From: an uncultured Gammaproteobacteria bacterium
GTDB taxonomy: Bacteria; Patescibacteriota; Patescibacteriia; SG8-24
Length of the DNA stretch: 64,000 nucleotides
Assembly: GCA_964491475.1 (NCBI GenBank)
Contig: CAZBFO010000005.1
Span: 841-64,840, forward strand
Direction: 5' to 3'
In this document: positions 1 to 31,915 of the stretch, one piece after another
Numbering within the stretch: position 1 is the first letter of the stretch
How the letters are laid out: every line of letters begins with the position of its first letter
Made by a program: the position numbers and the translations under genes
Notes under the pieces: model-generated
Databases searched by the model: none
What the model was told of the DNA's origin: nothing
The model's input: the letters and a program-made list of their open reading frames with translations, nothing else

Positions 1-3000
1 AGCCGCCGGACACCGTGGAGTCGATGAAGATGCCCTGCGCCGCCGTGCCCGCACCTTGGCGGTCGAGCGAAAGCACCGCAGCGTTGGTGTCGGCAGTAAC
101 GCCGTCGTAAACGTGCGAGGCCTTGATGGTGCCGTGGCTGGTTTCGTGACCGGTGACCTCGAAAGCCGTGAAGGCGTTACTGGTGGACACGAAGTTGCCG
201 GCAGCGACGCTCGATGTCGAACCGCTGTAAGTCGCAGTGATGGTGTGGCCGGTGCCGTCGGCCGAAACCGAGATGCCGCCGCCGGTGCCGCCCGTAGCGT
301 TGATGTCGAGCGAGGTACCGGTGCCATCGTTGGAAATCGCCATCACGTTCTGGTCGTAGGAAGTGTTGTCTGCGCGCAGCGAAAGCAGGCGTGCACCCGA
401 AGTCGAAGCGCCGGCGTTCGAGTACACGACGATGCCGGAACCGAGGTTGCTGGTATTGTTGATCAACAGCGTTCCGCCGATCGAGGTCGAGGTCGAAGTG
501 TTGCCGGTCGGGGTCAGGCGCAAAGCCGCTCCAGTACCCGAGTTTGCGACATCGAGCGTCGTGCCGTTACCTGCATTGTTGATCTTGATGGCGCTCGACG
601 TGCCGTCGTTGTCGAGGCGCAGCACCGGACCGTCACCGGCGGAGTTGTCCTGCTTCATGAAGACGAGTCCGGCCGACGATTGGCCCGAACCGGCGTTCGT
701 GTAGAAGTTCACGCCGATGCCGAGGTTGTTGGTGTTGTCGACCAGAAGCGCGCCGCTCGAGGTGGCATTGCTGCCGGTGGCGCCGTTCTGCTGAATGTAG
801 ATGGCGTTACCGGTGCCGGCGTTGGTCACGGCGATTCCCCTGCCGTTGTTGGTGGTGTCGTTCTGCGTGAGCGTGATGCCGTTGCCGCCAAGGCCGTTGT
901 AGACGTTAAGCGTCTGCTTGCCGACCAGGCCGCTGCTGTACCGCGCGTTAATGAACGCGGTCGCGGTGCCGTTGTCAGTGATGTCCGTGGTGTTGCTGGA
1001 AATGGTCGCGCCCTCGACCGTCACGCGGGAAGCGCCAGAGTCGATCAAGAGACCGGTGGCGTTGCCCTCGATCCAGGAGTTCAACAGCGAGATGTTCTGC
1101 GAAGTGCCGTCGATGTGCACGCCGGTGATGCCCGTCGGCGAAGACGGCTCAAAGTCGGAACCGACCACCGTCAGGCCGCGAGTGTCGACGAGGTTAAGAC
1201 CCGTACCTGCGCCACCTGCCTTCGGGCGGCAGCGGACGTTGATCATGTGGTTGGCGTTGGCCTGGCTGCCGGAGTACTCGACGCAGCTGTTGTTGTCGAA
1301 CAGGCGGGCATCGGTGAGCGAGTTGTAATAAGTGGTGGCAGCGGTGTCCTGGTACAGTACGCCGAGGTTCCAATTTTCGATGCTGACCTTGCTCACCCAA
1401 GTGTAGGCGGCATTGGACATGTCGAACGCCGTACCGACGGCAGAACCGTTGGTGTTCAGCCAGCGTCCGCCGGTGATGGTCACCTGACCGATGCCCGAGG
1501 TCATCTGGATGAGCGGCGTGACGCTTGCGCCGTCGGCCTGAATGATGGCGCCGGCAGACATGAAGATCTGAATCTTCGAGTACGGGATGGTGATGGTGGA
1601 CGTTTCCGTGTAGGTGCCGTCCTTCACCCAGATGGAACAGCCGCTCGAAGGGCAAGCCGCGACCGCCGCTCCTAGCGTGGTGTAGTCGCCGCCGCTCGCG
1701 GCAACGACGTAAGTGTACGTCTTCGTTGCCGACCCGCCGGCACCGGCGATGGTTCCGGAACAGGACAGGTTGCCGTTGGTGCCATCAACGGTACAGCCGG
1801 TAGAACCGGAGCCGCCAGCGAGATTGACGCCGGCCGAACCGACCGCGCCGCCGACGTTCACCGTGGTGGCGTTGGTGTTGAAGACGCTGGCAGTACCAGT
1901 CGAACTGGTCGCAACGCTCGGGCTGGCGCCGTTCAAGTTGAGCGCCGTCGCATTAGTAAGAGTGACGGTCGGGTTGGCGACGGTAAACGTGCCGGTGGAA
2001 GCGCCAAGGTTGAGGCTGGTCGCCGCGCCGCCGACGTTGAGCGTGGTTGCCGCGGTGTTCACCAGGTCAAAGCTTGTCGAGCCGGTGGTGAGCGAGGTGG
2101 TGATGGCCGGGCTGGTGCCGAAGACGGCCGCGCCGGAGCCGGTCTCGTCGGTGAGCGTGGCGGAGAGGGCGGCGGAGTTCTGCGAAGCGGTCAGGTTCGA
2201 GGAGCCGTCGGTGGTCACGAAGCGGCTGGCGGTGATGCCCGAGAAGGTGATCGTGCCGGAGCTCGAGATGCCCGTAATGTTCGACAGCGCACCGCCGTTG
2301 GAGAGGCGCTGGGTGCCGCCGGTCTGCAAGTCACCGTTCGAGAGGTTGATGGTGCCGTTGGCCAGCGTCATCGTGCCCGTCGAGGCGCCGATGCTGACGG
2401 TGGTCGCCGCGCCGCCGATGTTGAGCGTCGTCGCGGTCGAATTGAACAGCGTAGCGCTCGTCTGGCTGGTGGTGAGGTCGCCGCCGTTCAGTGCCAAGTC
2501 GCTGGTCATGGTCACGTCGCCGGTGTCGGCGATGCGCATGCGCTCGGTGCGAGTGGTGGTGCCGTTTGTGGTGGTCTCGAAGGTGAGGTAGGTGCCGTTG
2601 GCACTGGTCGTGAAGTTTTCACCCGCCTTGAAGATGATCGCCGCATTGCTCAACGAGGTAAATGCGGACCCGTTGTAGCCCTTGGCATTAAAGGTGAAAA
2701 GCGTGTCGTTGGCGTTCACCGCGGTCGGCGAACCGACGCTGCCGCGAGCGCGGCGGGCAGTCAGGTTTGCGGCAACGGAATTGCCGTAAGCGTCAATCGT
2801 CTCCTGTACCGGATCAGTGCTGCCGACAATCTGGAAATTGGAGCTCGGAGAGGTGGTGCCGAGACCGAGGCGATTATTCGTGTCGTCCCAGTAGAAGTTG
2901 GCGTTGTCCTGGCCCAGGTTTCCGCTGGCGTCGGCGAACAGCACCGAACCCGCAGTCGCGGAAGTGATGGAATCTCCGATGGAAACTCCGCTGCCCGACG

Positions 3001-5995
3001 TAATGCAGTCCGTCCAGGCGCCGTTCTGGTAGCAGCGGAACTTATTGGAGGTGGTGTTGTAGTACACCAAGCCCGCCGAACCGGTCGGATCGGAAGAAAG
3101 GTTTGCGAACTGCAGCGGACCGCTCAACTGATTGTTCGAAGAGCTGGTGGAAACGATCGGGCCGGTGGCCGTGACGCCGCCGCCGAAGGTGACGGCTTGG
3201 CCGCTGGTCGCGTTGATGGCCAGCGCGCCGACCGATTCGATCTTGCCGTCGGAGTAATAAGTGGAACCGTTGCCGGCGACGACGCCGTCGATGAAGTAGC
3301 CGCGGCCGAAGCGGTTTGCCAGCGCCTGCGCGGTGTCGGTGCCGCCGACTTCCGGAACGTGAACTTCGGTCACCACGTCGGTGCTGGACCAGTCGAGCGC
3401 GGGGCTGATGGTCAGCGTGTCGCCGGTGACTGCCGTAATCTTGGCGTAGCAGGGATTGGAGACGCAGGTAGCCGAAGCCACTTTGGCGTAGTTGCCGACG
3501 TCGAAGTTCGCGCCGTCGCCGGTCTGCACGTCGAGGCTCGTGGAAGCGGTGCCGGAGTTCGCCGCAGTCGACGCGCCGTCAAGCGTCGTGAAGGCGGTGA
3601 TGGCGTCGCCGGTCGCGTTGACGTTGAAGTTGGAGCTGGTACCGACGGAGAAGAGGTTGGTCGGGGCGTTGTTGCCGATGCCGAGCCGGGCGCTTCCTGC
3701 GTTCCAGTAGAAGTTGGCGTTGTCTTGGCCAAGGTTGCCGGAACCGTCAGCGAACAGCACCGAACCGGCCGTGGCGCCGGTAATCGAGTTGCCGATGACC
3801 ATGCCGCTGCCGGTGAGCGTCGAGCAGTCGGTCCACGAGCCGCCCGCGTAGCAGCGGAAGGTGTCGGAGGTCGTGTTGTAGTACATCATGCCGTTCGTTC
3901 CGGCCGGATCTGCAGACGCCGTGCCGATGGTCAGCTTGGTGCCGGCACCGAAGACGAGATCGCCCGCCAAGTAGCTGCTGCGAGTGGACGCGCTGTAGAT
4001 TGCGCGATCGCCGGACGGGTTGGTGGTCGTGCCGATGAGCAAGTCGGTATTGTTGGTCGCTCCTGTCATCTCTTCGATGAGCACGCCCGCACGGTTCGTC
4101 ATGGTACCGACGGCAGAAATGGTGTTACCGGCAACGATGGCGCGGCTGCTGGTGATCGTTCCGGAGACATTGTTGGAAACGCCGGCATAGAAGGCAATCG
4201 CTTCACTGACCGTTCCGGTCGATGCGTTGCTTACCTCTCCATCGAGGCCTATCATGCGGTTCACGGTGCCGGTACCGTTGTGTTGAGCGTAGCTAAGGCT
4301 GCCGAGAATGGAGTTCGTCGCGGTGAAGTTCCTGCTGTTGCCCGACAGGGTTGCGATGTAGTTGTATCCGCCAAAGTACTGCGAAGAAGTATCAGCCGTA
4401 GGATCAAGCTCGAAGTTCTGGTACACGAGCGTCGCGCCAGTGGTGTCGGTGGTGCGGTGGGTGACGTTCAAAATCGACGTCGAGTCGTAGCCGGGCACCT
4501 GATTGCCGATCGTCGCGTAACCGCGAACGTCCAGAAGAGCGCTCGGAGTGCTCGTGCCGATGCCGACATCGCCCGCAAAGTAAGACTTCGCGCCGCCGCT
4601 GCTGTAAATGGAGTAGTTGTTAGCTCCGGTCGTGGTCTGATCGATGGCCAATCCCTTGTTGTTGGTTCCGGCGGACTGGTCGCTGACATGTACGCCCTCG
4701 ACGTCGGTGATGGTACCGCCACCGGTGTTGGTGATGGTGTCTGCCCAGATGCCGCGAGCGGTGCCGAGCGTGCTGGTGCCCTGGTTGCCGACGAACGTAT
4801 ACAGGCCGTAGGCGCTGTTCAGATTGCCGGTCGAGTTGAGAAACACCTCGCCGTCGAGAGCAGCGACCTTGGCGTTGGTGTATGACGTCGAGTTCTGGAC
4901 CGTGACGTAGCCGCTCACGGCAGCGTTCGTCGTGGTCGTGTTAGCCATGTTGTCTGCCTTGAGCCAGCCGAGAAGCGTGCCGTGATCTGCCGAAGCATTG
5001 GTCTCGGAGGCGAAGACGTTCGCGTCGTTGTAGCTGGCTGTGTTGTAGCCGCCGAGGTCGGTGAAGTTCGACGGGCCGGCCCAAACGTCGTAGTTGTACG
5101 TGCCGCCGGTCGCCTTGTTGATGCGAAGCGCGTAGTTCCTTGCGCCGGAACCGTTCCACGTGCCCGTAGAAGTCAGCTCGAGGCCCGCCTTGTTAACCGA
5201 TGCGGTGGACGAGGTGGTGGTGTTGGAGAGCAGCGTGCCGCTGAACGAGGCAGTTTTCGCGCCGGTGCTGCTGACCTCCAGCGTGGAAGTCGGCGTCGCC
5301 GTTCCGATACCGATCATGTTGGCAGCCGAATCCAGCACGAAGGTCGTCGTGTCGAACGTAACGTCCTTGGTGAGCGTGAAGTTGCCGGAAGCGTCGGTGA
5401 CCGGCACGAATGCATTGGAACCGCCGGCGTTCGAAGTCTCGAGGTCGTCGAGCTTGTCGGCGTTCATGGCATAACCGGCCGCCACGATGCGCTTGCGGGG
5501 TGTCATTTCTGCGTCGGTGTTGACGGTGACGCCCAGGTACATGACCGGATTGTTGAAAAGTGCGGCTGGCATCGCTGCGGGGCTGCCGGAAGTGCAAACG
5601 AGAGGGGTGGTAACGTCGCCCATCAAAACGGTGGTGGTGCCACCGACGAATGCCGCAGTCACTGCCGTGGGGGTGCTGGTGGGGTTGCCGTCGGTGGTGC
5701 ATGCAGAAAACAACTGCGTGCCACCGCTGGCCGAGTCGTAGACGGTCAGGTAGATGTCGTTGTTACCGTCAGCGACCGTGTTGCCAGCAAGATCGGTCAG
5801 TCGCATCTGGTAATTCAGAACGCGGTTCAGTTCCGGAGCCGAAGCGGCGAATGCCGTTGATACCGAGAACAGCGTCGCAAGGCCGGTAATGACCGTGATA
5901 ACGGCAAAAACAATCCGAGCAACATTGGCAAAAAATTGCTCAATGGAGCGGTTATTCTCGCGGCTCTTTCGGTCATGGTGCCTAATAGTAGCCAT
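1..5995 (-). CDS. Giant secreted/surface beta-helix (fibre-repeat) protein, 3'-partial (C-terminus lies beyond window start); paralogue of the 52985..60856 product
   Basis: Manual reverse-strand translation from ATG (complement of 5993-5995) gives MATIRHHDRKSRENNRSIEQFFANVARIVFAVITVITGLATLFSVSTAFAASAPELNRVLNYQMRLTDLAGNTVADGNNDIYLTVYDSASGGTQLFSACTT... This is clearly homologous to the N-terminus of the 2623-aa ORF (NRILNYQISLTD..., GGTQLFTAC, AEMTPRK, DDLDTSNAGGSNAFVPVTDASGNFTLTKDV). Frame continuity was checked at about 3060 (..VYYNTTSNKFRCYQNGAWTDC..) and about 915 (GNGITLTQND.. beta-helix-like repeats); all are in the same codon phase. No stop lies before the window edge, which explains its absence from the ORF track. 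The plus-strand ORFs 56..1675, 3197..4885 and 4982..5860 are codon-aligned antisense shadows. Confidence 0.6.
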   Translation of the reverse strand, partial: MATIRHHDRKSRENNRSIEQFFANVARIVFAVITVITGLATLFSVSTAFAASAPELNRVLNYQMRLTDLAGNTVADGNNDIYLTVYDSASGGTQLFSACTTDGNPTSTPTAVTAAFVGGTTTVLMGDVTTPLVCTSGSPAAMPAALFNNPVMYLGVTVNTDAEMTPRKRIVAAGYAMNADKLDDLETSNAGGSNAFVPVTDASGNFTLTKDVTFDTTTFVLDSAANMIGIGTATPTSTLEVSSTGAKTASFSGTLLSNTTTSSTASVNKAGLELTSTGTWNGSGARNYALRINKATGGTYNYDVWAGPSNFTDLGGYNTASYNDANVFASETNASADHGTLLGWLKADNMANTTTTNAAVSGYVTVQNSTSYTNAKVAALDGEVFLNSTGNLNSAYGLYTFVGNQGTSTLGTARGIWADTITNTGGGTITDVEGVHVSDQSAGTNNKGLAIDQTTTGANNYSIYSSGGAKSYFAGDVGIGTSTPSALLDVRGYATIGNQVPGYDSTSILNVTHRTTDTTGATLVYQNFELDPTADTSSQYFGGYNYIATLSGNSRNFTATNSILGSLSYAQHNGTGTVNRMIGLDGEVSNASTGTVSEAIAFYAGVSNNVSGTITSSRAIVAGNTISAVGTMTNRAGVLIEEMTGATNNTDLLIGTTTNPSGDRAIYSASTRSSYLAGDLVFGAGTKLTIGTASADPAGTNGMMYYNTTSDTFRCYAGGSWTDCSTLTGSGMVIGNSITGATAGSVLFADGSGNLGQDNANFYWNAGSARLGIGNNAPTNLFSVGTSSNFNVNATGDAITAFTTLDGASTAANSGTASTSLDVQTGDGANFDVGNYAKVASATCVSNPCYAKITAVTGDTLTISPALDWSSTDVVTEVHVPEVGGTDTAQALANRFGRGYFIDGVVAGNGSTYYSDGKIESVGALAINATSGQAVTFGGGVTATGPIVSTSSSNNQLSGPLQFANLSSDPTGSAGLVYYNTTSNKFRCYQNGAWTDCITSGSGVSIGDSITSATAGSVLFADASGNLGQDNANFYWDDTNNRLGLGTTSPSSNFQIVGSTDPVQETIDAYGNSVAANLTARRARGSVGSPTAVNANDTLFTFNAKGYNGSAFTSLSNAAIIFKAGENFTTSANGTYLTFETTTNGTTTRTERMRIADTGDVTMTSDLALNGGDLTTSQTSATLFNSTATTLNIGGAATTVSIGASTGTMTLANGTINLSNGDLQTGGTQRLSNGGALSNITGISSSGTITFSGITASRFVTTDGSSNLTASQNSAALSATLTDETGSGAAVFGTSPAITTSLTTGSTSFDLVNTAATTLNVGGAATSLNLGASTGTFTVANPTVTLTNATALNLNGASPSVATSSTGTASVFNTNATTVNVGGAVGSAGVNLAGGSGSTGCTVDGTNGNLSCSGTIAGAGGSATKTYTYVVAASGGDYTTLGAAVAACPSSGCSIWVKDGTYTETSTITIPYSKIQIFMSAGAIIQADGASVTPLIQMTSGIGQVTITGGRWLNTNGSAVGTAFDMSNAAYTWVSKVSIENWNLGVLYQDTAATTYYNSLTDARLFDNNSCVEYSGSQANANHMINVRCRPKAGGAGTGLNLVDTRGLTVVGSDFEPSSPTGITGVHIDGTSQNISLLNSWIEGNATGLLIDSGASRVTVEGATISSNTTDITDNGTATAFINARYSSGLVGKQTLNVYNGLGGNGITLTQNDTTNNGRGIAVTNAGTGNAIYIQQNGATGSNATSSGALLVDNTNNLGIGVNFYTNAGSGQSSAGLVFMKQDNSAGDGPVLRLDNDGTSSAIKINNAGNGTTLDVANSGTGAALRLTPTGNTSTSTSIGGTLLINNTSNLGSGIVVYSNAGASTSGARLLSLRADNTSYDQNVMAISNDGTGTSLDINATGGTGGGISVSADGTGHTITATYSGSTSSVAAGNFVSTSNAFTAFEVTGHETSHGTIKASHVYDGVTADTNAAVLSLDRQGAGTAAQGIFIDSTVSGG

Positions 5996-6172
5996 CTTTT
6001 TTGCGACAAATACCCGAGGCTCTAGAAAAATAGCTATAAATAGCCCTATTCTAGGCCTTGTACCATTTTACCATTTTTTGGCACGCTTCTCAACGGCAAT
6101 GAGCCACTTTTTGAGCTCATTTATGCTGCTGGGTTGAGCCAAATACTGGTACTGGTGTGGAAGATTTTTTAT

Positions 6173-6246
6173 TTGTCCACAAGCTCACTATCTTCTGGGA
6201 AGCATAAACCTACTGCTCCTGTGGATAGTTTAAGCCATGTGGACAT
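6173..6246. promoter_or_regulatory. DnaA-box-like motifs upstream of the partial giant gene (minus strand); shares TTTATTTGTCCACA(A)GC with the region upstream of its paralogue
   Basis: TTGTCCACA 6173-6181, TGTGGATAG 6220-6228, TGTGGACAT 6238-6246. Compare 6166-6186 (ttttttatttgtccacaagc) with 52850-52872 (cactttatttgtccacagcaag). Confidence 0.45.
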
Positions 6247-6256
6247 TTGTTCCCTC

Positions 6257-6299
6257 CACGCCTCGTTGCCAAAAAAACACGCTTTGGCAACGAGGCGTG
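6257..6299. terminator. Strong hairpin terminator between the two giant minus-strand genes
   Basis: cacgcctcgttgccaaa-aaaacacgc-tttggcaacgaggcgtg, 17-bp perfect stem. Confidence 0.65.
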
Positions 6300-6335
6300 T
6301 CCCCGATTTTCATCGGGAAACGCTTAATTCAGGCT

Positions 6336-9300
6336 TTATTCTGTCTTCTTCTCTTCAGGATGCGCCTGATCGGCATCGGGCAACAAGCGACCATTCTGGG
6401 CTCCAGAAGCCTCGTCCTTGAGTTCCTTTAGCAGTTCGGCGGCGGATTCATGCTTTATGACGGGAGTAGGCGCAGCTTTGTCCACGCTTGTTTGGACATT
6501 TGAGTCTTTCTTCGGTATCTCTCCCGGCTTCGGCATAACCTTAATGCCGTCATCGCCAGTCGTGGGCGGAGACGCTTCCGGTTTGCTGCCAGTGGTCATT
6601 TTCTTCAGGCGCGCGAGCATCTTTGCCTCATAGGACTCGCCTTCTGCCACGGGCTCTGCCTTTGGCATTTCTGGTTGCGCGGCTGCAGGTGCTACGGGTG
6701 ACGGGACTGCGGCTGCAGGCGCCGCCGGAGCCGGTGCGACCGGCGGTGCGATAGGAGTCTCGATGGACTTTACCGGTGTACGGAGAGCCAACCCAGCCGG
6801 CTGGGGCGGCATGGCCGGCAGTGACGTCGAAATGCGCTCACCGCCGTCCGTTGGCGGCCCTGAAGGCGTGCCCGGATCCGCCGAAGGCACGGCTGGCGGC
6901 TTTACGACCGCTCCCGCCGCTGGCGTAGCTCCCCCTTCCGTTCGCGGCAGGTGCACGTCCACGGCGACCACATGCATGCCCTTCTCCTTGGTGTCGATCA
7001 GGTTGACCGGACCCTTCTGCTGCTTCTGGTAGCCGGGCTTCTCGAAAGTCACGTAGTAGGTGTTCTGACCCACCAAGAACGCGTAGCGCCCGCGGACGTC
7101 GGTTACCTGCGTCTCGAGCAGCTTGTTGAAGCGGGTGTCGAAGATGCGCGCCACCACGTTGGAGAGCGGCTTCTTGGACTTGTCGTCGTAAACGATGCCC
7201 CAGTTCTTCGGCTTGCGCGTAATGGACAGGCGGCGGAACAGCAGGTACATGATGACGTTTGCCCCGAACATCGCGAACATGGTCGGCGTCGGCGAAAGCG
7301 CCGTCGCCACGGCCATGGCGAGAATGGTGATGACGCCGAGGCTCTTCTGCAGGCGGCGGGCAATGCCCTCGAGCAGGATCCTGCGCGGCGTCTTTTCGAC
7401 GCTTACCGGATCGAGCGGGACGTTGGCCGTGATCGTGGTCTCCTTGGTGACCTCGATGATTTCGCCGTGATACAGGTCGATGAACTTGGCGTCTTCCTTC
7501 ATTCCGCGCAGCACGTCTGACGGGAAAACGTACGAGGTCTTCACGGCAATCATCTTGTACGTGCCGGCCTGCACGATGAAGAAGTAGCGGCCGTCCTTGT
7601 CGGTAACGGCGGAGCGCACCACGCGGCCCGTCTTGGCATCAAGCAAGCGGACGATTGCCAGGTCGATGGGCAACTTGGAGAGCGAGTTGTAGACCACGCC
7701 CCACTGCTTGCGGCGCCGGCGGGCAATGAGCATGAACGGATGTGCCAGCAAGCTCCACAGGTACAGCAGGTACGGCACCACCGTCGCGGTGGCCACGCCG
7801 GCCGCAGCGACGTTCGCCACGGTCGCAACCGTCGCCGCGGGCGCGGCGATGTCCTGCGCGTTCTGCTTCACGTAGGCGTTGCCGGCGAAATCCGCTACGG
7901 CGTCGGCGGCGATCTTCGCGGCAAAACTGACGTTGGCGATGACGTCGTCTTTCGGCGGCAGCTTGATCAGCTTCACGTCGTTGCGCAGCACGTTCTCCGT
8001 GGCAAGCGGGAACGGAAGCGTGGTCTTCGTCGCGTATTCGTCGCGTTCGACGATCAGCTTGTACGAACCGATGGGCAGGATGTAGCCAAAGCGGCCGTCG
8101 GCGTCGGTAATCTGGGGGTTCTGCTGGCTCGAAGTGCCGCCGTCCCACAAGCCGAAGTTGCCGCCGCCGTTGTCGATCATCAGCGTCACGCGAGCGCCTG
8201 CCAGCGGAGCGTTTCCGTTATCGTCAAGCACGCGCGGTCGCGGCACGGTGCGCACGATGAAGTGCACGCTGTCGGAACCGCCGTCCTTGTACTTGACGAT
8301 GACGTCCATCGGATAGTCGGCGCTGGTCGAGGGCGTGGTCACCGTGGCTTCATAGCTGGCCGTCTGCCGCATCACGTAGCCGGCGTTATTGAAGTTGATG
8401 AAGGCGCTGTCGATCTCGTGCTTGATCGAAGGATCGGGAATCATCACGGTGAACACCGACGAGCTGTAGTAATTCAGCACGCCGCCCTGCATGCGCAGCT
8501 GGATCTTTCCCGAGGTGGCGAAGTAGCGCAGAGCGTCCGGAGTCAGCTTGATGTCCGAGCTGACCGTCGGCTTCGGCACCTCGACCGGAGGCTCCTGCGG
8601 AACGATCGGGCAGTCCGCCGGGCAGTTCAGCGAGTTCTCCTCGCCGGCGCAGATGCCGTTGCCGCATATCTCGGTGCTGGGCGGCGCGTTCGACGGGACG
8701 CACTTGCCGGCCGAGCACTTGAAGCCGCCGCCGCAGGCATGCGTCTCGGTCTGGTGCTGGTTGGCTTCGTCGCAGTAGCGCTCGAGCAGGGTGGCTTCAT
8801 CGGCGCACGAGTCGGTCTCGGTCTGACCGCCGTTGAAGCTGACCGTGCCCTGCAGGTCGTAATTCTTGCCGCCGTCGCTGTCGCTGCACGACGGTCCGAC
8901 CGGCGGAGGAAGGTTCGCCAAGGGAGTGGCGTCGTCGAACGCGCCTGACGCGTAGTTCAGCACGTTATCGTAGGCGAAGGCGCCGTAGTAGTACTTGGTG
9001 CCGTTGGTGACGCCGTTGTCCATTTTGTTGTCGCCGATGCCGTCGAATACGACGGTGCCGTCGTTCGGACCGCTCGGGTTGCTTCCCGTCTTGCGCACCA
9101 CGCGCGTGCCGGCCCAATCGGCATCGCTCGGATTGTGCCAGGTCAGCTGCACTTGCGCGTCGCCGGCGGTCGCCGTCAGCAGCGTCACCGGACCCGGCGG
9201 CACGTGGTCTCCGCCCGCGGGAGTCGCCTGCGCCTGCGCAGGCGTCGAATAATTCGGCACCGCGTCGTAGGCGTAGAGCGTGTAGAAGTAGAGCGTGCCG

Positions 9301-12014
9301 TTCGCGACGGCCGTATCAAGGTAGCTCTGTTGCGGACCCGAATACACCAGCGTGCCGTCGGTGGGGCCGGTGGAGTAATCGCCGATCTTGCGCAACACCT
9401 TCACGCCCTGGAAGTCGATGGCGCTCGGATTGTTCCAGTTGAGCTGGATCTGCGAATCCCCCGGCGTCGCGGTCAGGTTGGTCACCGGTCCCGGCGGCGT
9501 GGTGTCGGCAGTTCCGGCCGGCGTGGCGTTGGCGATCGCGCCCGAGGAATAGTTGGGCACGTCGTCGTAGGCGAACACCGCGTAGTAATAGGTGACGCCG
9601 TTGGTGACGGTGAGGTCGATCTTCGAAGTGCCGCTGCCGGTGTACACCGGCGTGCCGTCGTTGGAATCGGTCGGATACGAAGTCGTCTTGCGGAGCATTT
9701 TCACGCCCACGAAGTCGGCATCGGTCGGATTTGTCCAGTTCAGGGTCACCTTCGAATCGCCCGGGGTTGCGGTCAGCCCGGAAACGTTCGCCGGCGGCGT
9801 AGTGTCCGCAAGCGTCGTGAAGGTGAAGTCGTTCGAGATGACCGTCTGGCTGCCGGTGTCCGTAGAAGAGACGCGGAAATGGTAGAGCTTTCCTTTGGTC
9901 AGGCCCGTCAGCACGATGGCATGACTGGTCGTCAAAGTGGCGCTGCTGGCAGTCGAGCCGTAGCTTGCCTGCAGGCCGTACTCCACGGTGGAGTCCGACA
10001 TGGTGCCCAGCGTGTCCCAAGTGATCGTCGCGCCCGTCTGCGTGATGGCCGTCGACTGGACGTTGGTGATGTCTGGCGGCGTGCCGTTGCAGATGTTGGC
10101 ATCGTGCAGGAAGTTGATGGTCTGCGGGTTGCCGGCACCGTCATGCGAATCGGACCACAGCAGCTGGTCCTTGCGGAGCACGCCGTGATAGTAGATTTCC
10201 GCGCGAACCACATGGTGCCACGACGAGCTTTCCGGCTGGGCGCTGAACAGCACTGCCGAGCAGTCGCGGTGATCGACATCAACGACCACGTCGTTGTAGT
10301 CGAAGTCGATGCCCTTGTCTTCGAAGCCGTAGCGGTCGATGCCCGGCGACAAGTGCGTCACCTGCACGTAATTGCCGCCGACCTTTCGCACGGTGCCGTC
10401 CGGATTGATGATGTACGGATAGAATTCGGTGGCGGTGCAGTCCACGTTGCAGGTGCCGGGGGCCGCCGCCAGCGTCTTGAAGGTCAGGTCCGCGGTGTTG
10501 GCGGAGTTGGAAGAGAGGTCCTTCGAGGTCAGCTTGTAATGATAGGTCGTGTCGGGGTTCAGGCCGGTCAGGTCGAAGCAGCGCGTCAGCGCATAGTTGG
10601 TGTCCGTCTTGGACTGGCCGTAGGCGTTGGTGATGCCGTAATCGATCAGCCCGTCGGCGGCCTCGTTCGTGTCCCAGCAGACGTGCGCCGACTCGCTGGT
10701 GATCGAGGTCACCTGAATGTTGCTGATGATCGGCGGAGTGGTGTCGGCCACGCAGGAAAGCTGCGTCACGAAGGTGGCGTCCGAGGTGAACGACTCGTTG
10801 GAAGCGGCATCGCCCGAACGCACGCGGTAATGGTACTGCGTGTTGGGCGTCAGGCCGGAAAGGATGACCGTGTGCGAAACCACCAGCGTGGCACTGCCGC
10901 TGGTCGAGGCGTACGGCGGACCGACGGGCAGGCCGTAGTCGACGTAGCTTGTCGAGTTTTCGTCGGTGGTCCAGGTGACGGTAGCCGAGCTGCACGCGGC
11001 GCTCACGTTCACGCTCGAGATGCTCGGCGGCGTGGTATCGGCCATCGAGAACGTCTGATCGCCGGAGCAGGCCTGGTTGTTCGAAGGATCCTTTGAGCAG
11101 ACCTGGTAATGATAGGTCGCGCCCTCGGTCAGCGAGCTAAGCGTCAAACAGTGGACCGCGATGTACGCGCCGTTCGATTGCTGGCTGCCGTAAGTATTCG
11201 TCAGTCCGTAATTGACCGTCGAGTCGGCGACCTCGTTGGTGTTCCAGCACACGTCGATGCTGTTGGTGGTCGCGTTCTGCGTGTGGATGTTGGTGATGAT
11301 CGGAGGGGTCACGTCCGCGCCGCCACCGCCGCCGCCGCCCGGCGGGGGTGCGCCGACCACCGTCGCCGTGATGGTCACGTCGCCGCTGTCGATGATGGAA
11401 ACGGCCATGCTGCAGATGTCGCCCGCCACCTGGCAGTCGCCCGCGCCGTCCAGCACGCCGATCGCGTAAGAACCCGCAGCCGACGGGTTCGTAAGCGTGC
11501 CGTTGGGTGCCGCACCGCCGACGGTGAACGTCACGAAAGCGCCCGCAGCGCTGCTCGTGAACGATCCGCCGCAGGGAATCACGCGGAAAACCAGACCTGC
11601 CGTATCCACCGCCACGCCTACGTTGTTGACACCGTCGGGGCAGACGACCGTAGAAACGGAAGGCCCCTGGTTGACGCCGGCGATGGTGCGGGCGGTACCG
11701 TCATTAAAGGAGAAGTCGGCTGCGGCCCACACGCCGCCCGTGGTGAACGCGCTGGTCTCCGGCAGGTCGATGGCGATCTTTTCGCCGGCCGCAAAGGTGT
11801 TGCCTCCGGACAGGTTAAAGGAGATGACGTGGTTGGCGGCAGCGCTGACGGCCTGGTTGGAGAGCTTATCCTGGCGGTTGGTGAGCTGCGCCGCGTAAAT
11901 GCGAACCACGACCGCGGTCGCCGCCACGATCAAAAACAAAGCCAAGCCCATCCACGCGTTCATGCGTCGAAGGCCCTTTGCGGCTTTGACTTTCTTTTCC
12001 CTACTCTCCTGCAT
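6336..12014 (-). CDS. Giant (1892 aa) multi-domain membrane/surface protein. It has an N-terminal signal-anchor, at least 7 Fn3-like domains (YHYQV/YHYRV/YHYKL/YHFRV motifs; three tandem TTPPGPV..LNW..GVKVLRK..YYY..AYD repeats) and a Cys-rich module. CarboxypepD_reg-like domains alternate with TM helices, and there is a Pro/Ala-rich C-terminal tail
   Basis: Single 1892-aa ORF. Domains were recognised by eye from the translation. TM segments lie at the N-terminus and at about residues 1395-1420 and 1545-1580, each followed by RRRRKQWGVVY.. or RKPKNWGIVYD.. and a DGRYxF..G.Y beta-sandwich motif. Confidence 0.75.
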   Translation of the reverse strand: MQESREKKVKAAKGLRRMNAWMGLALFLIVAATAVVVRIYAAQLTNRQDKLSNQAVSAAANHVISFNLSGGNTFAAGEKIAIDLPETSAFTTGGVWAAADFSFNDGTARTIAGVNQGPSVSTVVCPDGVNNVGVAVDTAGLVFRVIPCGGSFTSSAAGAFVTFTVGGAAPNGTLTNPSAAGSYAIGVLDGAGDCQVAGDICSMAVSIIDSGDVTITATVVGAPPPGGGGGGGADVTPPIITNIHTQNATTNSIDVCWNTNEVADSTVNYGLTNTYGSQQSNGAYIAVHCLTLSSLTEGATYHYQVCSKDPSNNQACSGDQTFSMADTTPPSISSVNVSAACSSATVTWTTDENSTSYVDYGLPVGPPYASTSGSATLVVSHTVILSGLTPNTQYHYRVRSGDAASNESFTSDATFVTQLSCVADTTPPIISNIQVTSITSESAHVCWDTNEAADGLIDYGITNAYGQSKTDTNYALTRCFDLTGLNPDTTYHYKLTSKDLSSNSANTADLTFKTLAAAPGTCNVDCTATEFYPYIINPDGTVRKVGGNYVQVTHLSPGIDRYGFEDKGIDFDYNDVVVDVDHRDCSAVLFSAQPESSSWHHVVRAEIYYHGVLRKDQLLWSDSHDGAGNPQTINFLHDANICNGTPPDITNVQSTAITQTGATITWDTLGTMSDSTVEYGLQASYGSTASSATLTTSHAIVLTGLTKGKLYHFRVSSTDTGSQTVISNDFTFTTLADTTPPANVSGLTATPGDSKVTLNWTNPTDADFVGVKMLRKTTSYPTDSNDGTPVYTGSGTSKIDLTVTNGVTYYYAVFAYDDVPNYSSGAIANATPAGTADTTPPGPVTNLTATPGDSQIQLNWNNPSAIDFQGVKVLRKIGDYSTGPTDGTLVYSGPQQSYLDTAVANGTLYFYTLYAYDAVPNYSTPAQAQATPAGGDHVPPGPVTLLTATAGDAQVQLTWHNPSDADWAGTRVVRKTGSNPSGPNDGTVVFDGIGDNKMDNGVTNGTKYYYGAFAYDNVLNYASGAFDDATPLANLPPPVGPSCSDSDGGKNYDLQGTVSFNGGQTETDSCADEATLLERYCDEANQHQTETHACGGGFKCSAGKCVPSNAPPSTEICGNGICAGEENSLNCPADCPIVPQEPPVEVPKPTVSSDIKLTPDALRYFATSGKIQLRMQGGVLNYYSSSVFTVMIPDPSIKHEIDSAFINFNNAGYVMRQTASYEATVTTPSTSADYPMDVIVKYKDGGSDSVHFIVRTVPRPRVLDDNGNAPLAGARVTLMIDNGGGNFGLWDGGTSSQQNPQITDADGRFGYILPIGSYKLIVERDEYATKTTLPFPLATENVLRNDVKLIKLPPKDDVIANVSFAAKIAADAVADFAGNAYVKQNAQDIAAPAATVATVANVAAAGVATATVVPYLLYLWSLLAHPFMLIARRRRKQWGVVYNSLSKLPIDLAIVRLLDAKTGRVVRSAVTDKDGRYFFIVQAGTYKMIAVKTSYVFPSDVLRGMKEDAKFIDLYHGEIIEVTKETTITANVPLDPVSVEKTPRRILLEGIARRLQKSLGVITILAMAVATALSPTPTMFAMFGANVIMYLLFRRLSITRKPKNWGIVYDDKSKKPLSNVVARIFDTRFNKLLETQVTDVRGRYAFLVGQNTYYVTFEKPGYQKQQKGPVNLIDTKEKGMHVVAVDVHLPRTEGGATPAAGAVVKPPAVPSADPGTPSGPPTDGGERISTSLPAMPPQPAGLALRTPVKSIETPIAPPVAPAPAAPAAAVPSPVAPAAAQPEMPKAEPVAEGESYEAKMLARLKKMTTGSKPEASPPTTGDDGIKVMPKPGEIPKKDSNVQTSVDKAAPTPVIKHESAAELLKELKDEASGAQNGRLLPDADQAHPEEKKTE

Positions 12015-12126
12015 ATTTTTCCCTGAAAGACCCCGCGGCCGCCCCTCTTATAAAGAGGAGCGCTCGCGGAGCGTGGAGGAGGGCCGTTCCCGCCTCCACA
12101 CTCTAAACTCTAAACTTTCAACTCTT

Positions 12127-13131
12127 TTACTGCTTCTTAGTCTTCCTCTCGTAGCGGCGAATGACCGCCTTGTTGTACCCCTTCATGCCGACCGTGAAGA
12201 ACAGGATGACGATGAGCAGCGCGAGGCCGACCAGCGTCATCATTCTCCAAGGCCAAACGGTGAAGGTGCGCACTTCCGAGAGCGTCTGGTTGTTGGAGCC
12301 GTAGTTCACGAACAGCGTGGCCTCGTACCTGCCGAAGCCGAAGTTGTTCCACTCGTTGGCCAGCTGGGTAAAGAACCCTCCCTCCTTCGGCTTGCCCGCG
12401 CCCCATCCGAAGGTGAACTTGCGGATGCTGTGCGGCAGTACGGAGCCGAACTGGTCGTTCACCTTGATGGAGGCCACCTGGCGGCCGTACCAGTTCTTGA
12501 TGAAGACGTTACCGGCGGGGCGAAGGTTGGTGTTGCCGTCGTTTTCGAACCGCATGAACATGTCGATCGGCAGCGTGTTGTACCAGAGCTTCTTGTCCTT
12601 GAAGGTGAAGTCGAGGATGCGGCCGGTCTCGTTCAGGTCGCCGCTGACGTTGACGAAGATCAGCGAGCCGAGCTTGGTTTCCACGCCGACCTCACCACCC
12701 TTAGGATCCGCCTTGCCGCTGGCCATCAGCACCGCGCCGTAGTGAGCGCCAGGCTGGGCGTCCTTGGGAATGTTGATGGCAATCGGGATGTTGGCGCGTT
12801 CCTTGGGAGCGAGCGTGTAGGTCTTGCTGGGATCGGTGATCGTGATCCACCTGGCAAGGTCGGTGCCGTCGCGCTTTTCATTCGGCGGATAGAACACCGG
12901 AATGCCGTTTTCCTCACCCTCGATGCTAGTGAAGTTCATCACCTGCACGTGGAACGTGTTCGGAGAGGTGTCCTCGTTGTACACCTTGACCACGTCCAGC
13001 ACGGTGTCGCCGGGATTCAGACGGTAGTCGACGTACGGCGGCGAGATGGTCAGCGCTTGGGCCGAAAGTGCGGGCATGAGCGTTACCAATACCGTGGCTG
13101 CTGTGGCGACTTTTGCGAGAAACTTCTTCAT
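12127..13131 (-). CDS. Secreted protein with C-terminal TM anchor and basic tail; DUF916/DUF3324 (CscA)-like cell-surface protein
   Basis: Probable start is MKKFLAKVATAATVLVTLMPALSAQA (signal peptide). The architecture matches DUF916 proteins of WxL/Csc clusters: about 300-aa ectodomain, motif INIPKDAQPGAHYGAVLMAS, C-terminal TM (WRMMTLVGLALLIVILFFTV) and a KR-rich tail. The family assignment is from memory, not from a search. Confidence 0.55.
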   Translation of the reverse strand: MKKFLAKVATAATVLVTLMPALSAQALTISPPYVDYRLNPGDTVLDVVKVYNEDTSPNTFHVQVMNFTSIEGEENGIPVFYPPNEKRDGTDLARWITITDPSKTYTLAPKERANIPIAINIPKDAQPGAHYGAVLMASGKADPKGGEVGVETKLGSLIFVNVSGDLNETGRILDFTFKDKKLWYNTLPIDMFMRFENDGNTNLRPAGNVFIKNWYGRQVASIKVNDQFGSVLPHSIRKFTFGWGAGKPKEGGFFTQLANEWNNFGFGRYEATLFVNYGSNNQTLSEVRTFTVWPWRMMTLVGLALLIVILFFTVGMKGYNKAVIRRYERKTKKQ

Positions 13132-13234
13132 AACGTCGTTACAAGAATAAAATCTTCCTTTTCGACCGTGGCAGCTAATCTCCACGGGAGAGTCCCCCTC
13201 CCCGGAGGGAGAGAGGGAGCTCGTCCCGCAAAGA

Positions 13235-14275
13235 CTAGAAGGTGCCCGTGGCCACGAAGGTCAGGACGTCCGTGTAGTCGTTGTGTGCAGCGGTCAACGA
13301 ATTGGCGTTGGCGTTGACGATGATCTCGCCGACACCCGTGCCGACCGGACCGCCGGCCGTGTTCAGGATGTTCGTCGGAGTCAAGGTCGAGAGCGCCTTA
13401 ACGTCGTTCGTGGTACCGCCCGGAGCGCAGGTGCCCGCGTTATACGGGGAAGCTGCCTGGAACGTACCAGTGGTCGCCGACGGCGGTGTGACCGTGTTCA
13501 CGCACAGGCCGTAGTTGGCGTTGGCGCTAGCCATCGCAGCTGCGGCGTTCGGGATCGTGTCCAACGGAGCCGAGGTCGACTTGAGCGCGGCATTCAACGA
13601 GAGAACTGTCACGACTGCGCCGCTTGAGGCGTTTGTCGAGAGGTTCGCCCAGATGCTGTCGATTGCCGCGTTGTCCGACGACTTCACCGTGCCCGGAGTG
13701 AGCACTCCGAACGGTACGTCATACACGGGACCCTCGGACGCGTTATTCAGGTTGGCGTTGAGGTCGAACGTGATTGACGGGTCGACCGTCGCGGTGACAG
13801 TCACCTGGTCGCTGTCATCAAGAGCGACAGCGAACGTGCCGGTGGTGGCAGCGGTACCGGTGATGGTGACCGTGCGGCTACCTGCAGTCGTGTCGTCGTT
13901 GGTGGCTGCCGCTTCGGTGATCGTAGCGACGTCGCCAGCCGCACAACCAGTGGTCGTGACTTTGAGGACGTTGCTAGCCGAGGTGTTGTCGGCAATCGTG
14001 CCGCCCGAAGGAGTGCAAGTACCCGTGGCAGTGGCAGGGAAAGTCCAGCCAGCGCCGACGTTCTGGTACGTGAAGTCCAAGTTGCCATTAACGAAGGACG
14101 CGGGAAGCGTCAGCGTGACGGTGTGGTCTGACGTCGCGCCGAGAGCCTGGCGGCTCAAGGTGTCCGACATCAGCGTTGCGTTATCGGCCATTGCCGGGGA
14201 AACGGCGGCGAACATGGCGAGCATGGTCGCGGCGGCCGTAACCTTGGCGCCGAATTTCATGAATTTGTTCTGCAT
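13235..14275 (-). CDS. Secreted Thr/Ala/Gly-rich surface protein with conserved C-terminal motif DYTDVLTFVATGTF (WxL-like, F replacing W); paralogue of 15037..15891
   Basis: N-terminal signal peptide (MKFGAKVTAAATMLAMFAAVSPAMA), low-complexity T/A/G-rich body, C-terminus shared with the neighbouring paralogue. Confidence 0.55.
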   Translation of the reverse strand: MQNKFMKFGAKVTAAATMLAMFAAVSPAMADNATLMSDTLSRQALGATSDHTVTLTLPASFVNGNLDFTYQNVGAGWTFPATATGTCTPSGGTIADNTSASNVLKVTTTGCAAGDVATITEAAATNDDTTAGSRTVTITGTAATTGTFAVALDDSDQVTVTATVDPSITFDLNANLNNASEGPVYDVPFGVLTPGTVKSSDNAAIDSIWANLSTNASSGAVVTVLSLNAALKSTSAPLDTIPNAAAAMASANANYGLCVNTVTPPSATTGTFQAASPYNAGTCAPGGTTNDVKALSTLTPTNILNTAGGPVGTGVGEIIVNANANSLTAAHNDYTDVLTFVATGTF

Positions 14276-14637
14276 GTTTTTAGTCCTTTATGCCAGTCTG
14301 CTGCACCGGGTTAGAAACGCTTGCCACAATTGGGTTGTGGGCGTAGCCACCTGGCGTGGCCAGATGACTAGCCAATCCTCCACTCTCGAGCTATGGAAGA
14401 CCGGAGTAGATGCCAAGCGTGATGCAGAGCTGGTTGTTAATGTGACTAGAACTCGTCCGTACCTTCCCGCGTAGAGAAAGTGCATTTAGTCATTCTCCCG
14501 GACAGAATCGAAGAGGTCCTACACCCTCCGAGATGCATTAGAGATGACGTATCGACCTTTAATTCCGGTCGGTCCATTGCTGAACCAACCATAAACCGCG
14601 GGGCATTCCCCCCGCGCCCCTCCACACGCCAGTCCGG

Positions 14638-14660
14638 TAATCCACACCAACTGTGGATAA
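14638..14660. promoter_or_regulatory. Inverted pair of DnaA-box 9-mers (TAATCCACA ccaac TGTGGATAA)
   Basis: Lies in the 761-bp ORF-less spacer between the two WxL-like paralogues and is preceded by a cgcgggg-cattcc-ccccgcg hairpin. Confidence 0.45.
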
Positions 14661-15036
14661 CCTGTGTCTGACCTGTGAAGAAGTGCGGAGGCATGCCTTT
14701 AAGAGCAACGCCGCGTCGCTGCTATACACGTCGCAAACCTATCGAGTTGTGAGAGCGCGGCCGACGAGTCCGATGACCATTGCGGTCGTCGTGAACTCGA
14801 CCAGAAGCCGGAACAACTTGATTTTTGTTTTTTTGCACATACGAGCCTTCTGCCGGTTAAGGCTAAGTTCTCCGTGCCTAAAAACTGCGACCTTTTCGCG
14901 CCCCTTTTGTGGAGGGGCGGGGCCGATCCCAGAGCCATGCTTCTCTTGGATCGACCTCGCACCTTCACTTGTCATTTGTCTACGCTTTTCTGGACAACCG
15001 CTTGTTGCTCGATGCCGCTCATTCGCGGCCCCGTCG

Positions 15037-15891
15037 CTAGTACGTCGCAGTCCCAATGAACGTCAACGTGTCTGTGTAGTCGCTCCCTGCAGCCGTACCG
15101 TTGCTGATCGCTGCTTTGACGAACACTTCTGCCTGTCCGCCAAGCAACTTGCCGGTGGAAGAAAGCACCGTATTCGCCGTCGTCGATACGAGACCAACGT
15201 TGTGGGCACTTGTCGTACAGGTGCTGGCGTAGGGCGAAATCGGATTAAACGTGGTCGGGCTGGCTCCGTCCTGGGTTGCATTGGCCACGCAAATGCCGAA
15301 GCCGGCCGCACCAGGTGTAAGCAGGGCTGTCGCCGAAGAAATCAAATCTGCCGTCGAGACCCGCTTCAGGCCATTGTTGTTATCGACAACGGTCACGATG
15401 GTCCCGCCCGCGCCGTTGCTTTCGGCATTGATGAACACGGAGTTGATGGTGCTGTTATCACTAGTGTTTACCGATCCTGTCGTCAGCGTAGCGAGAGCCA
15501 CTCCTGCGCCGGCCGTACCGGGCGCGGAAGTCCCCTCCTTCACGGACATCGTGATGTACGGCACGTTTGAACCGAAACACTGAAAACCGGAACAGGTCTT
15601 GAAGTTCGCGCTGCTCAAATTTTCACCGGTGGCCAAATCGCCGAGCGTATCGTTGGCTTTGTAGCTCGCCGAGCTGCTGTTGCCGCCACCTTGGCTCAAC
15701 ACATCTTGCTGCACCTTGTAGCTGGCTGAACTCATCGTTTCTGCGAACGCAAACTCACTCGTAGGAAGTACGAGTGCGATAACCACAAAAACCGCAGTTA
15801 GCGTTTGGCGAGTCTTAAGCCCAAGCATGGATGGCTCAAAGATAACTTGCCTTATGACGGTATTGTAACATTTTTTTGTCCCTTTGTCCAA
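15037..15891 (-). CDS. Secreted Thr/Ala/Ser-rich surface protein with conserved C-terminal motif DYTDTLTFIGTATY (WxL-like); paralogue of 13235..14275
   Basis: Signal peptide/TM near the N-terminus (TLTAVFVVIALVLPTSEFAFA). The true start is probably internal, at about 15828 (MLGLKT..). The C-terminal 14 aa are conserved with the paralogue. Confidence 0.55.
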   Translation of the reverse strand: MDKGTKKCYNTVIRQVIFEPSMLGLKTRQTLTAVFVVIALVLPTSEFAFAETMSSASYKVQQDVLSQGGGNSSSASYKANDTLGDLATGENLSSANFKTCSGFQCFGSNVPYITMSVKEGTSAPGTAGAGVALATLTTGSVNTSDNSTINSVFINAESNGAGGTIVTVVDNNNGLKRVSTADLISSATALLTPGAAGFGICVANATQDGASPTTFNPISPYASTCTTSAHNVGLVSTTANTVLSSTGKLLGGQAEVFVKAAISNGTAAGSDYTDTLTFIGTATY

Positions 15892-16024
15892 GCTGAAACG
15901 TGGCTAATGTTAGCCTAAAAAAAGGCAATTTCGCCTCAATTTTTACTTATCAACAGAACCGAGGAGACGATTAAGCTCAATGACTATTTAAGTTGTTCAC
16001 ATAATTGGGTACATATTCACACTT

Positions 16025-16685: not shown

Positions 16686-16737
16686 CCCCTTTTCATACCC
16701 TCTAAAATCTGTTACACTCCGATACACGTCCATATAT

Positions 16738-16812
16738 GCCCTTGTAGTTCAATGGATAGAACAGATCCGTCCTAAGGATAAAATGGGGGTTCGATTCCCT
16801 CCGGGGGCACCA
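16738..16812 (+). tRNA. tRNA-Arg (anticodon CCT), CCA encoded
   Basis: Manual fold: acceptor GCCCTTG/CGGGGGC (2 G-U), D arm GTTC-AATGGATA-GAAC, anticodon arm GATCC-GTCCTAA-GGATA (one mismatch), T arm GGGGG-TTCGATT-CCCTC, discriminator A, then CCA. The T-loop GTTCGATTC is canonical. The anticodon call is less certain than the existence of the tRNA. Confidence 0.55.
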
Positions 16813-17009: not shown

Positions 17010-17010
17010 C

Positions 17011-29975: not shown

Positions 29976-29979
29976 AACC

Positions 29980-31913: not shown

Positions 31914-31915
31914 AC

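Follow-up and report, generated by a model that had tools for sequence, protein, structure and literature searches.

Results

A five-gene cluster on the minus strand

We analysed a stretch of 64,000 nucleotides from contig CAZBFO010000005.1 (assembly GCA_964491475.1), called the window throughout, and concentrated on five consecutive minus-strand genes at bases 2–15828 that probably encode a thin surface pilus. Open reading frame (ORF) listing and translation place a 263-residue short pilin first, followed by a 346-residue long pilin, a 334-residue protein with a DUF916 domain, a giant protein of 1875 residues and a tail-fibre-like giant of at least 1998 residues. An earlier note on this DNA had correctly recognized the run of five genes but called them fused; they are separate and adjacent, with intergenic gaps of about 50–760 nucleotides. 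Recorded gene calls of 263, 346, 334 and 1875 residues were recovered by exact-sequence look-up, and the ORFs of 284, 352 and 1892 residues are upstream extensions. The GC content of the cluster region is 55–64%. Its features are as follows:

15037..15828, minus strand: short pilin, PamT-like, 263 residues; start confirmed by exact look-up
14372..14404, minus strand: hairpin/inverted repeat, about 100 nucleotides 5' of the long-pilin start codon
13235..14275, minus strand: long two-domain pilin, 346 residues; 77 homologues, alignment and AlphaFold2 (AF2) model
12127..13131, minus strand: DUF916/WxLIP_PGBD protein with two immunoglobulin (Ig) domains, 334 residues from MKKF, predicted chaperone; PF06030
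6336..11963, minus strand: Fn3/CarboxypepD_reg giant, 1875 residues; Pfam, hhalign and transmembrane (TM) segments; the longer ORF, 6336-12014, gives 1892 residues
2..5995, minus strand: tail-fibre-like giant, at least 1998 residues; ATG at 5995, with the frame open through base 2 and leaving the window

The system to which we compare this cluster is the Pam pilus, a thin filament of the Candidate Phyla Radiation (CPR) parasite Ca. Mycosynbacter amalyticus that has been solved by electron cryomicroscopy (cryo-EM) and was made known in 2026 by a preprint (Troman et al., bioRxiv 10.64898/2026.03.03.709456). PamA and PamB each comprise an N-terminal beta-sandwich, a single linker strand and a truncated Ig-like C-domain, and they polymerise through the linker, which is inserted into the C-domain of a neighbour. 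PamT consists of a C-domain only and is the predicted tip; PamC and PamD are chaperones of the PapD kind that carry a TM helix at the C-terminus; and PamR, which has a strand at its N-terminus, a pair of FnIII domains and a TM helix, is predicted to terminate and anchor the filament. Near the Pam operon a 'tail fibre-like protein' is consistently encoded, and Pam pilins are reported mainly in Saccharimonadia and Microgenomatia (10.64898/2026.03.03.709456).

Two pilins share a C-domain and only one carries a linker

The long pilin (17% Ala, 17% Thr) opens with a Sec-type signal peptide, which is followed by a variable N-terminal beta-sandwich (residues 31-150), a linker (residues 151-167, nucleotides 13775-13825; DDSDQVTVTATVDPS) and a C-domain (residues 168-346) that ends in AHNDYTDVLTFVATGTF. 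It has 77 homologues, of which the few with a named source derive from Patescibacteria metagenome-assembled genomes (MAGs). Alignment of the family revealed a variable N-domain, a conserved linker with the motif DDxQVTVTATVDPS, and a conserved C-domain ending in AHNDYTDTLTFVATGTF. Mean column identity rises from 0.50 in the N-domain to 0.78 in the linker and 0.90 in the last strand of the C-domain; the linker is the most conserved internal element and the last C-terminal strand the most conserved part of the family, and the linker motif is found in all 17 of 17 long pilins. PamA and PamB show the same pattern, in which the linker and last strand are highly conserved and the N-domain is variable (10.64898/2026.03.03.709456). 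The AF2 model (predicted local distance difference test score [pLDDT] 88.8) contains two beta domains and leaves the linker of the monomer as a non-strand segment of lower confidence. The long pilin therefore has the two-domain, linker-joined build that characterizes Pam pilins, and we predict that it is the shaft subunit. Searches with the model returned generic Ig, cohesin and YcnI-like folds only; Foldseek against the PDB gave generic tandem-Ig adhesins alone (TM-score ~0.2). Sequence and profile searches with the three small proteins of the cluster gave nothing useful in a copy of the PDB that includes neither 25PZ nor 25QA, the entries for PamA and PamB.

The short pilin (14% Thr, 12.5% Ala) is composed of a Sec signal peptide, the repeat SxSYK in two copies, a CxxxxC pair and a pilin C-domain ending in GSDYTDTLTFIGTATY. 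Its C-domain is 38% identical to that of the long pilin over the C-terminal 160 residues (E 6e-22), bearing out the earlier description of two paralogous, secreted, Thr/Ala-rich proteins. The short pilin aligns solely to positions 157-348 of the pilin hidden Markov model (HMM): N-domain and donor linker are both lacking, the linker motif occurs at the linker position in no short pilin, and a conserved SxNY pair occupies the place of the N-domain and linker, inside the stretch that aligns to the PamT model. Across residues 8-195 (188 residues) the short pilin matches the NCBIfam model NF058579, CPR_pilus_PamT, with an E-value of 1.5e-8 and a score of 34 bits; neither cluster pilin reaches the curated cut-off of NF058579 or NF058581, and neither has a match in Pfam. 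Like PamT, it thus offers a C-domain and no linker strand, and we predict that it is an acceptor-only tip subunit.

A phmmer search of 1.84 billion cluster representatives returned 430 relatives of the short pilin at E<=1e-3. When 27 of these were tested, six matched NF058579 PamT (best E 1.1e-17) and seven matched NF058581, CPR_Pam_pilin_C ('Pam pilus system pilin subunit'). Because of these matches the pilin family is, as judged from sequence, a distant branch or homologue of the Pam pilins and not an equivalog.

The pilin C-domain also occurs at the extreme C-terminus of proteins of 1.0-2.2 thousand residues in other genomes (P0191, P0192, P0207, P0212, P0213, P0215, P0217 and others). These are candidate large tip adhesins, and their layout parallels that of the 'large WxL proteins' of Firmicutes. 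In two distant Uhrbacteria loci (L018:8950-9990 and L019:2-820) the gene before the chaperone still has the short-pilin SxNY repeats (hhalign probability 97%) and its product ends in ...GTYTQTVLYTLTANY, a pattern between those of the pilin and WxL end strands; alignment of this protein to WxL gave no significance.

The DUF916 protein resembles a membrane-held pilus chaperone

The 334-residue protein matches Pfam PF06030, WxLIP_PGBD (formerly DUF916), with an E-value of 1.4e-7 and 32 bits against a cut-off of 27.3, and 33 of 39 family members match it as well. It thereby carries a domain found in the WxL-interacting proteins (WxLIPs); DUF3324 gave no sequence match in the protein or its homologues. 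A TM helix at residues 297-315, near the C-terminus, is followed by the basic tail RRYERKTKKQ, as the earlier note had described. The AF2 model (pLDDT 86.5) shows two Ig-like domains and a long helix at the C-terminus; a loop modelled with low confidence joins two long strands. Across its two domains the protein aligns both with WxLIP and with pilus chaperones, and its layout is that of a PapD/FimC-like two-domain chaperone with an added C-terminal TM helix. It is thus a DUF916/WxLIP member that is also pilus-chaperone-like in fold, and we predict that it serves as the pilus chaperone, analogous to PamC and PamD.

DUF916 genes are not confined to this setting. By tblastn we located them on plasmids of Clavibacter, Streptomyces, Deinococcus, Weissella, Enterococcus and Vagococcus. 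Beyond Firmicutes and CPR, genes for DUF916-like TM proteins adjoin genes for small secreted hypothetical proteins on the plasmids of Deinococcus sp. NW-56 (L025, 4935-10508), Clavibacter (L022, 7104-8918) and Streptomyces (L024, 5884-8761). The Deinococcus gene also adjoins that for a 1013-residue SdrD_B/CarboxypepD_reg protein, and its 292-residue neighbour ends in ...ATLTYTLTSNTTGF. The Clavibacter and Deinococcus neighbours gave no significant hhalign match to the pilin profile, and the Streptomyces neighbours are RTX-repeat proteins.

The pilins do not align with WxL domains

The earlier note had taken the two Thr/Ala-rich proteins for WxL proteins on the strength of their C-terminal strand. 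The pattern Y.D.LTF does recall the Y.T.LTW of WxL domains, but the resemblance has no statistical support and yields no alignment to them. Pfam WxL (PF13731) was matched by 0 of 42 pilin family members even at E<=10, and hhalign of the pilin profile against a WxL profile (a 14-sequence alignment, with the genuine WxL cluster taken from a Vagococcus plasmid) returned a probability of 1%, or 0.2% for the C-domain alone. The cluster accordingly lacks two or more proteins with a PF13731 domain, and it has neither an LPXTG CscD-type protein nor a Lactobacillales/Bacillales host. At the level of sequence, pilins and WxL partners are not demonstrably homologous. The earlier note had named ordinary pilins among the homologues as a finding that would overturn its reading, and the outcome comes close to this, the proteins being pilins of the Pam type.

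A giant protein carries the pilin N-domain and linker without the C-domain

Pfam analysis of the 1875-residue giant identified Pur_ac_phosph_N/fn3-type repeats and three CarboxypepD_reg domains, confirming the domains assigned to it earlier, while the length of 1892 residues given then gives way to that of the recorded gene. Its N-terminal part contains a signal peptide, a pilin-type N-domain with linker (SIIDSGDVTITATVVG; nucleotides ~11355-11942) and a Gly run. About 1000 residues of Fn3/PurAcPhosph_N-like repeats (~8), with DUF4114-like and Cys-rich modules, make up the middle. In the C-terminal part three hydrophobic segments (near residue 1400 and at residues 1540-1590), followed by positive stretches of the RRRRK type, are interleaved with CarboxypepD_reg domains ahead of a Pro/Ala-rich tail.

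The first ~200 residues of the giant match the pilin profile with an hhalign probability of 98% (E 4.6e-14), and the match stops exactly at the linker. All 18 of 18 orthologous giants match the pilin HMM at positions ~10-165 (independent E-values of 1e-11 to 1e-27), and in none of them does a C-domain follow; a Gly/Pro spacer or Cys-rich module stands there instead. Unless the linker acts between molecules, its retention in a giant that is otherwise unlike the pilin is difficult to account for. Like PamR, the giant combines a donor strand with fn3-type repeats and hydrophobic membrane segments, though it is far larger. Since a subunit that has a donor strand and no acceptor groove must be added last, and since this position is combined with membrane segments, the giant is likely, by analogy, to be a donor-only basal terminator and membrane anchor, an enlarged functional counterpart of PamR. 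Across loci, conservation within the giant is highest in its C-terminal TM/CarboxypepD_reg module.

Within residues ~1260-1700, two of the three CarboxypepD_reg (prealbumin-like) domains come after hydrophobic segments trailed by RRRRK or RKPK. These two domains would therefore be cytoplasmic, which is unusual for this domain.

A tail-fibre-like giant closes the cluster

The fifth protein (15% Thr, 13% Gly, 12% Ala, 11% Ser) begins with a hydrophobic signal/anchor, continues through a conserved N-module of ~200 residues (50-63% identity) into a Thr/Gly/Ser/Asn-rich fibre, and includes a HylP-like segment. It has no Pfam or NCBIfam match. Against PDB sequences, residues 1824-1995 match the phage hyaluronidase HylP, a triple-stranded beta-helix (E 6e-8), and another segment matches the surface-anchor proteins 8on4/8oml (E 1e-8). 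Of the earlier description of a beta-helix fibre of more than 1990 residues, the size stands, with the frame still open, and the beta-helix is plausible at least for residues 1824-1995. In 13 other loci a fibre orthologue comes 3' of the Fn3 giant and closes the cluster. A scan of fibre homologues detected neither the N-domain nor the C-domain of the pilins, and the idea of the fibre as a C-domain-bearing tip adhesin was dropped for this reason. The protein is probably a separate, trimeric surface fibre, which its conserved gene position would tie to the pilus.

A second giant ORF, at 52985-60856 on the plus strand (2623 residues, no Pfam match), shares 63% identity with the N-terminus of the fibre giant over its own N-terminal ~190 residues; this paralogue, likewise a tail-fibre-like surface protein, lies 47 kb from the pilus cluster.

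The cassette is conserved in related genomes

Scanning GTDB species genomes with the chaperone alignment yielded 19 loci, from Uhrbacteria, Parcubacteria-group and Patescibacteria MAGs; NCBI assigns Uhrbacteria to the Parcubacteria group. The order of short pilin, long pilin(s), chaperone, giant and fibre is kept wherever the contig reaches far enough (~18 species-level genomes). A giant orthologue follows the chaperone gene on its 3' side in 18 of 20 related loci, and the contigs of the other two stop inside the chaperone gene. Where the source names of homologues are informative, they are Patescibacteria, Uhrbacteria or Parcubacteria MAGs.

Seven GTDB representative MAGs with the cassette bear titles from outside CPR: 'uncultured Gammaproteobacteria' for L005, L009, L010, L014 and L019, 'Candidatus Binatia' for L017 and 'Vicinamibacterales' for L007. 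These titles are likely to reflect mislabelled records or contaminating contigs, and they bear on whether the system can be called exclusive to CPR.

A conserved hairpin precedes the long-pilin gene

The hairpin at 14372-14404 on the minus strand reads TCTTCCAT AGCTCGAGA GTGGAGGA. It is single in the window, where 0.03 matches are expected by chance, and it occurs once, at the equivalent position, in the loci of seven other species, with a diverged copy in an eighth. The seven copies are located as follows:

L002:952-970
L004:8779-8797
L005:8663-8681
L010:6827-6845
L013:7184-7202
L014:8663-8681
L017:8593-8611

Across species the inverted repeat spans 19-33 nucleotides and lies ~55-125 nucleotides 5' of the long-pilin start codon, and it is almost identical between species whose pilins are merely ~40% identical. 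RNAalifold predicted an 8-bp stem with little covariation. From its sequence and position, the hairpin may be a 5'-untranslated-region stability or processing element, or an operator, for expression of the major pilin.

Chromosomal setting

The remainder of the window encodes dnaA, dnaN, polA, holA, rnpA, tig, pnp, a class A penicillin-binding protein and an H+-pyrophosphatase. The presence of dnaA, dnaN, polA and similar genes indicates that the cluster is chromosomal and near the origin. The genes dnaN, dnaA and rnpA lie at 28674-32323, coinciding with the minimum of cumulative GC skew, and this is a probable replication origin region, separated by ~13 kb from the pilus genes. GC content dips to 46.5% at 16000-18000, immediately upstream of the cluster, against flanks of 55-64%; this stretch carries tRNA-Arg(CCT), tRNA-Ala(CGC) and rmuC. 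An Rfam scan of 1-18 kb gave nothing beyond the two tRNAs, and promoter and terminator scans gave signals no better than chance.

We found no sortase or usher among the scanned window ORFs and no PilB-like gene in the window, and the LPXTG motif and class-III signal peptide are both missing from the five cluster proteins. A sortase-dependent or type IV pilus was rejected on these grounds. A classical chaperone-usher pilus was likewise set aside, given the missing usher and the TM anchor of the chaperone.

Discussion

Taken together, these observations are best explained if the five genes are a chromosomal operon that encodes a thin Pam-type surface pilus, chaperone-assisted, usher-less and built by donor-strand exchange, in an Uhrbacteria-like CPR (Patescibacteria) bacterium; we assign this explanation a probability of about 0.75. 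The PamA/PamB filaments solved by cryo-EM, together with chaperone-usher pili, serve here as models for a proposed mechanism. Sec would export all components, and the membrane-tethered DUF916-type chaperone would cap the open C-domain groove of each pilin with an F1-G1-like hairpin strand. The short PamT-like pilin, which has a C-domain only and lacks a donor strand, would for that reason start the fibre as its distal tip. Copies of the 346-residue pilin would then be added at the base, the linker strand DDxQVTVTATV of each entering the C-domain groove of the previous subunit. The 1875-residue giant, with N-domain and linker, would be inserted last; as it has no C-domain it would accept no further subunit, so that growth terminates, and it would tie the fibre to the cell through its ~1000-residue Fn3 stalk and three C-terminal membrane segments.

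The likeness to Pam pili encompasses a pilin whose two domains are joined by a conserved donor strand and whose C-domain is conserved as well, a tip pilin that has a C-domain only and matches NCBIfam PamT, a two-Ig chaperone tethered through a TM helix at its C-terminus, an FnIII-containing protein that is TM-anchored and bears a donor strand, a tail-fibre-like gene in the same cluster, and Sec signals in a system without usher, sortase or ATPase whose informative source names are CPR. The two systems differ in that sequence similarity is remote, with the long pilin matching no Pam model; in the terminator, which here, at 1875 residues, combines an entire pilin N-domain and ~8 Fn3-like repeats with CarboxypepD_reg domains and three membrane segments, whereas PamR is a small, two-FnIII protein; in the lineage, which is Uhrbacteria-like (Parcubacteria group); and in the GC content, ~60% here.

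Several observations weigh against assignment to the Pam type. The long pilin and 40 relatives matched no NCBIfam Pam model at E<=1, and the PamT match of the short pilin falls far under the equivalog cut-off (34 versus 240 bits). PamA, PamB, PamC, PamD and PamR were likened to the present proteins through their descriptions in the preprint and not through sequences. One chaperone and one long pilin are encoded here, compared with two and three in M. amalyticus, and no ATP synthase genes lie nearby in the window, unlike the Pam neighbourhood described in the preprint. Pam filaments have been seen by cryo-EM, whereas the present system is known from genes alone; donor-strand insertion, subunit order and the topology of the giant are inferred by analogy.

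A rival explanation is the Csc/WxL cell-surface complex of Lactobacillales and Bacillales (PMC10599100, PDB 9i1y, 9i25), which the earlier note had proposed and which would also suit the PF06030 match of the DUF916 protein and most of its relatives. Under this explanation the Thr/Ala-rich proteins would be peptidoglycan-binding WxL domains of divergent sequence, held on the wall by the DUF916 protein (as proposed for the E. faecium WxLIP), with the giants as displayed adhesins and no filament. Besides the shared family PF06030, the two systems have in common two Ig domains with a TM helix and basic tail in a WxLIP-like layout, and a similar cluster logic, in which the TM-anchored protein is accompanied by a small secreted subunit and a large surface protein. 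In both, a partner is predicted to be complemented by a beta-strand: AF2 puts a hairpin strand of WxLIP into the WxL sandwich, completing it (PMC10599100), an insertion that is, in that model, chaperone-like. The end strand is superficially similar too. Nevertheless, a WxLIP is organized as DUF916-DUF3324-TM, while our protein shows no DUF3324 sequence signal and the cluster no LPXTG CscD-like protein; the WxL profile comparisons were negative throughout; and NCBIfam Pam models were matched. WxL proteins are believed to attach non-covalently to peptidoglycan, with no filament described for them, whereas the partners here possess a donor linker suited to polymerisation, common to pilin and giant and without counterpart in the WxL model. 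We therefore consider a Csc/WxL complex very improbable. Still slimmer is the chance that these are unrelated secreted surface proteins, of an S-layer or envelope scaffold, which share Ig-like folds and do not polymerise by strand exchange. The generic folds returned by structure searches of the pilin model, and a lineage known from genes alone, would suit such proteins, yet this would leave the linker as the most conserved internal element without explanation, as it would its retention in a giant with no other resemblance to the pilin, the strict five-gene synteny and the matches to Pam models.

A pilus of the Pam type might also be assembled without the giant as its basal anchor. The giant could be a distal adhesin in a fibre of reversed polarity, could dock laterally, or could be a regulator that competes for the chaperone, anchoring being achieved otherwise. 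Its ~1000-residue Fn3 array with DUF4114-like and Cys-rich modules resembles adhesin stalks, the proteins of 1.0-2.2 thousand residues with a C-terminal C-domain suggest that large proteins join such fibres in several ways, and the order of subunits is here inferred. We regard this arrangement as unlikely. A donor-only subunit sits at the last-added end, which in chaperone-usher pili is the base (PapH logic), and a donor without acceptor groove fits no other position. Three hydrophobic segments with RRRRK stretches would be needless in a distal adhesin, and it is the module containing them that is best conserved in the giant. PamR moreover follows the same logic of N-terminal strand, FnIII domains and TM helix (10.64898/2026.03.03.709456).

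With the chaperone-usher pili of Gram-negative bacteria, above all those of the archaic and alternative classes (chaperones CsuC, EcpB and CfaA), the proposed Pam-type pilus shares the division into acceptor-only tip, donor-plus-acceptor shaft and donor-only terminator. It differs from them in having no usher or outer membrane, in tethering the chaperone to the membrane, in using as donor strand an internal linker between two domains and not an N-terminal extension, and in showing no sequence similarity.

The Pam system itself is already known, and the locus is not categorically new. What is new is the predicted donor-only giant anchor, the strict five-gene cassette outside the lineages emphasized in the preprint, and the DUF916 membership of the chaperone. 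The claim in the earlier note that coupling to giant proteins was undescribed is true only in part, as the preprint records both a tail-fibre-like gene and the FnIII terminator PamR (10.64898/2026.03.03.709456). Its suggestion of a role in attachment to a host or substrate is plausible.

That the chaperone belongs to DUF916 suggests a connection, not recognised before, of Pam pili with WxL clusters. WxL and DUF916 are unmentioned in the Pam preprint (10.64898/2026.03.03.709456), and we found no link between DUF916 and CPR in the literature searched. A tentative extension, which we think possible but doubtful, is that C-terminally anchored two-Ig proteins of the DUF916 type are one ancient family of usher-less pilus chaperones of bacteria without an outer membrane, with Pam pili, Csc/WxL clusters and the DUF916 clusters of Clavibacter, Streptomyces and Deinococcus as variants of one assembly system. 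If this were true, WxL clusters, now seen as peptidoglycan-binding platforms, would work by chaperone strand complementation and exchange, and the giant donor-only anchor would be the CPR way to fix such a fibre to the membrane.

Attachment to other cells is the way of life of CPR (Patescibacteria) bacteria. The cluster described here would represent a very divergent yet recognisable version of the Pam system in Uhrbacteria-like lineages. A giant that donates a pilin strand but does not accept one suggests concretely how such a fibre ends and is anchored, and conserved gene position would link the pilus to a tail-fibre-like giant that most likely cooperates in host-cell contact. Placing a Pam-type chaperone in DUF916/WxLIP would provide a testable bridge from the pili of CPR bacteria to the WxL clusters involved in virulence and adhesion of enterococci, listeriae and lactobacilli.

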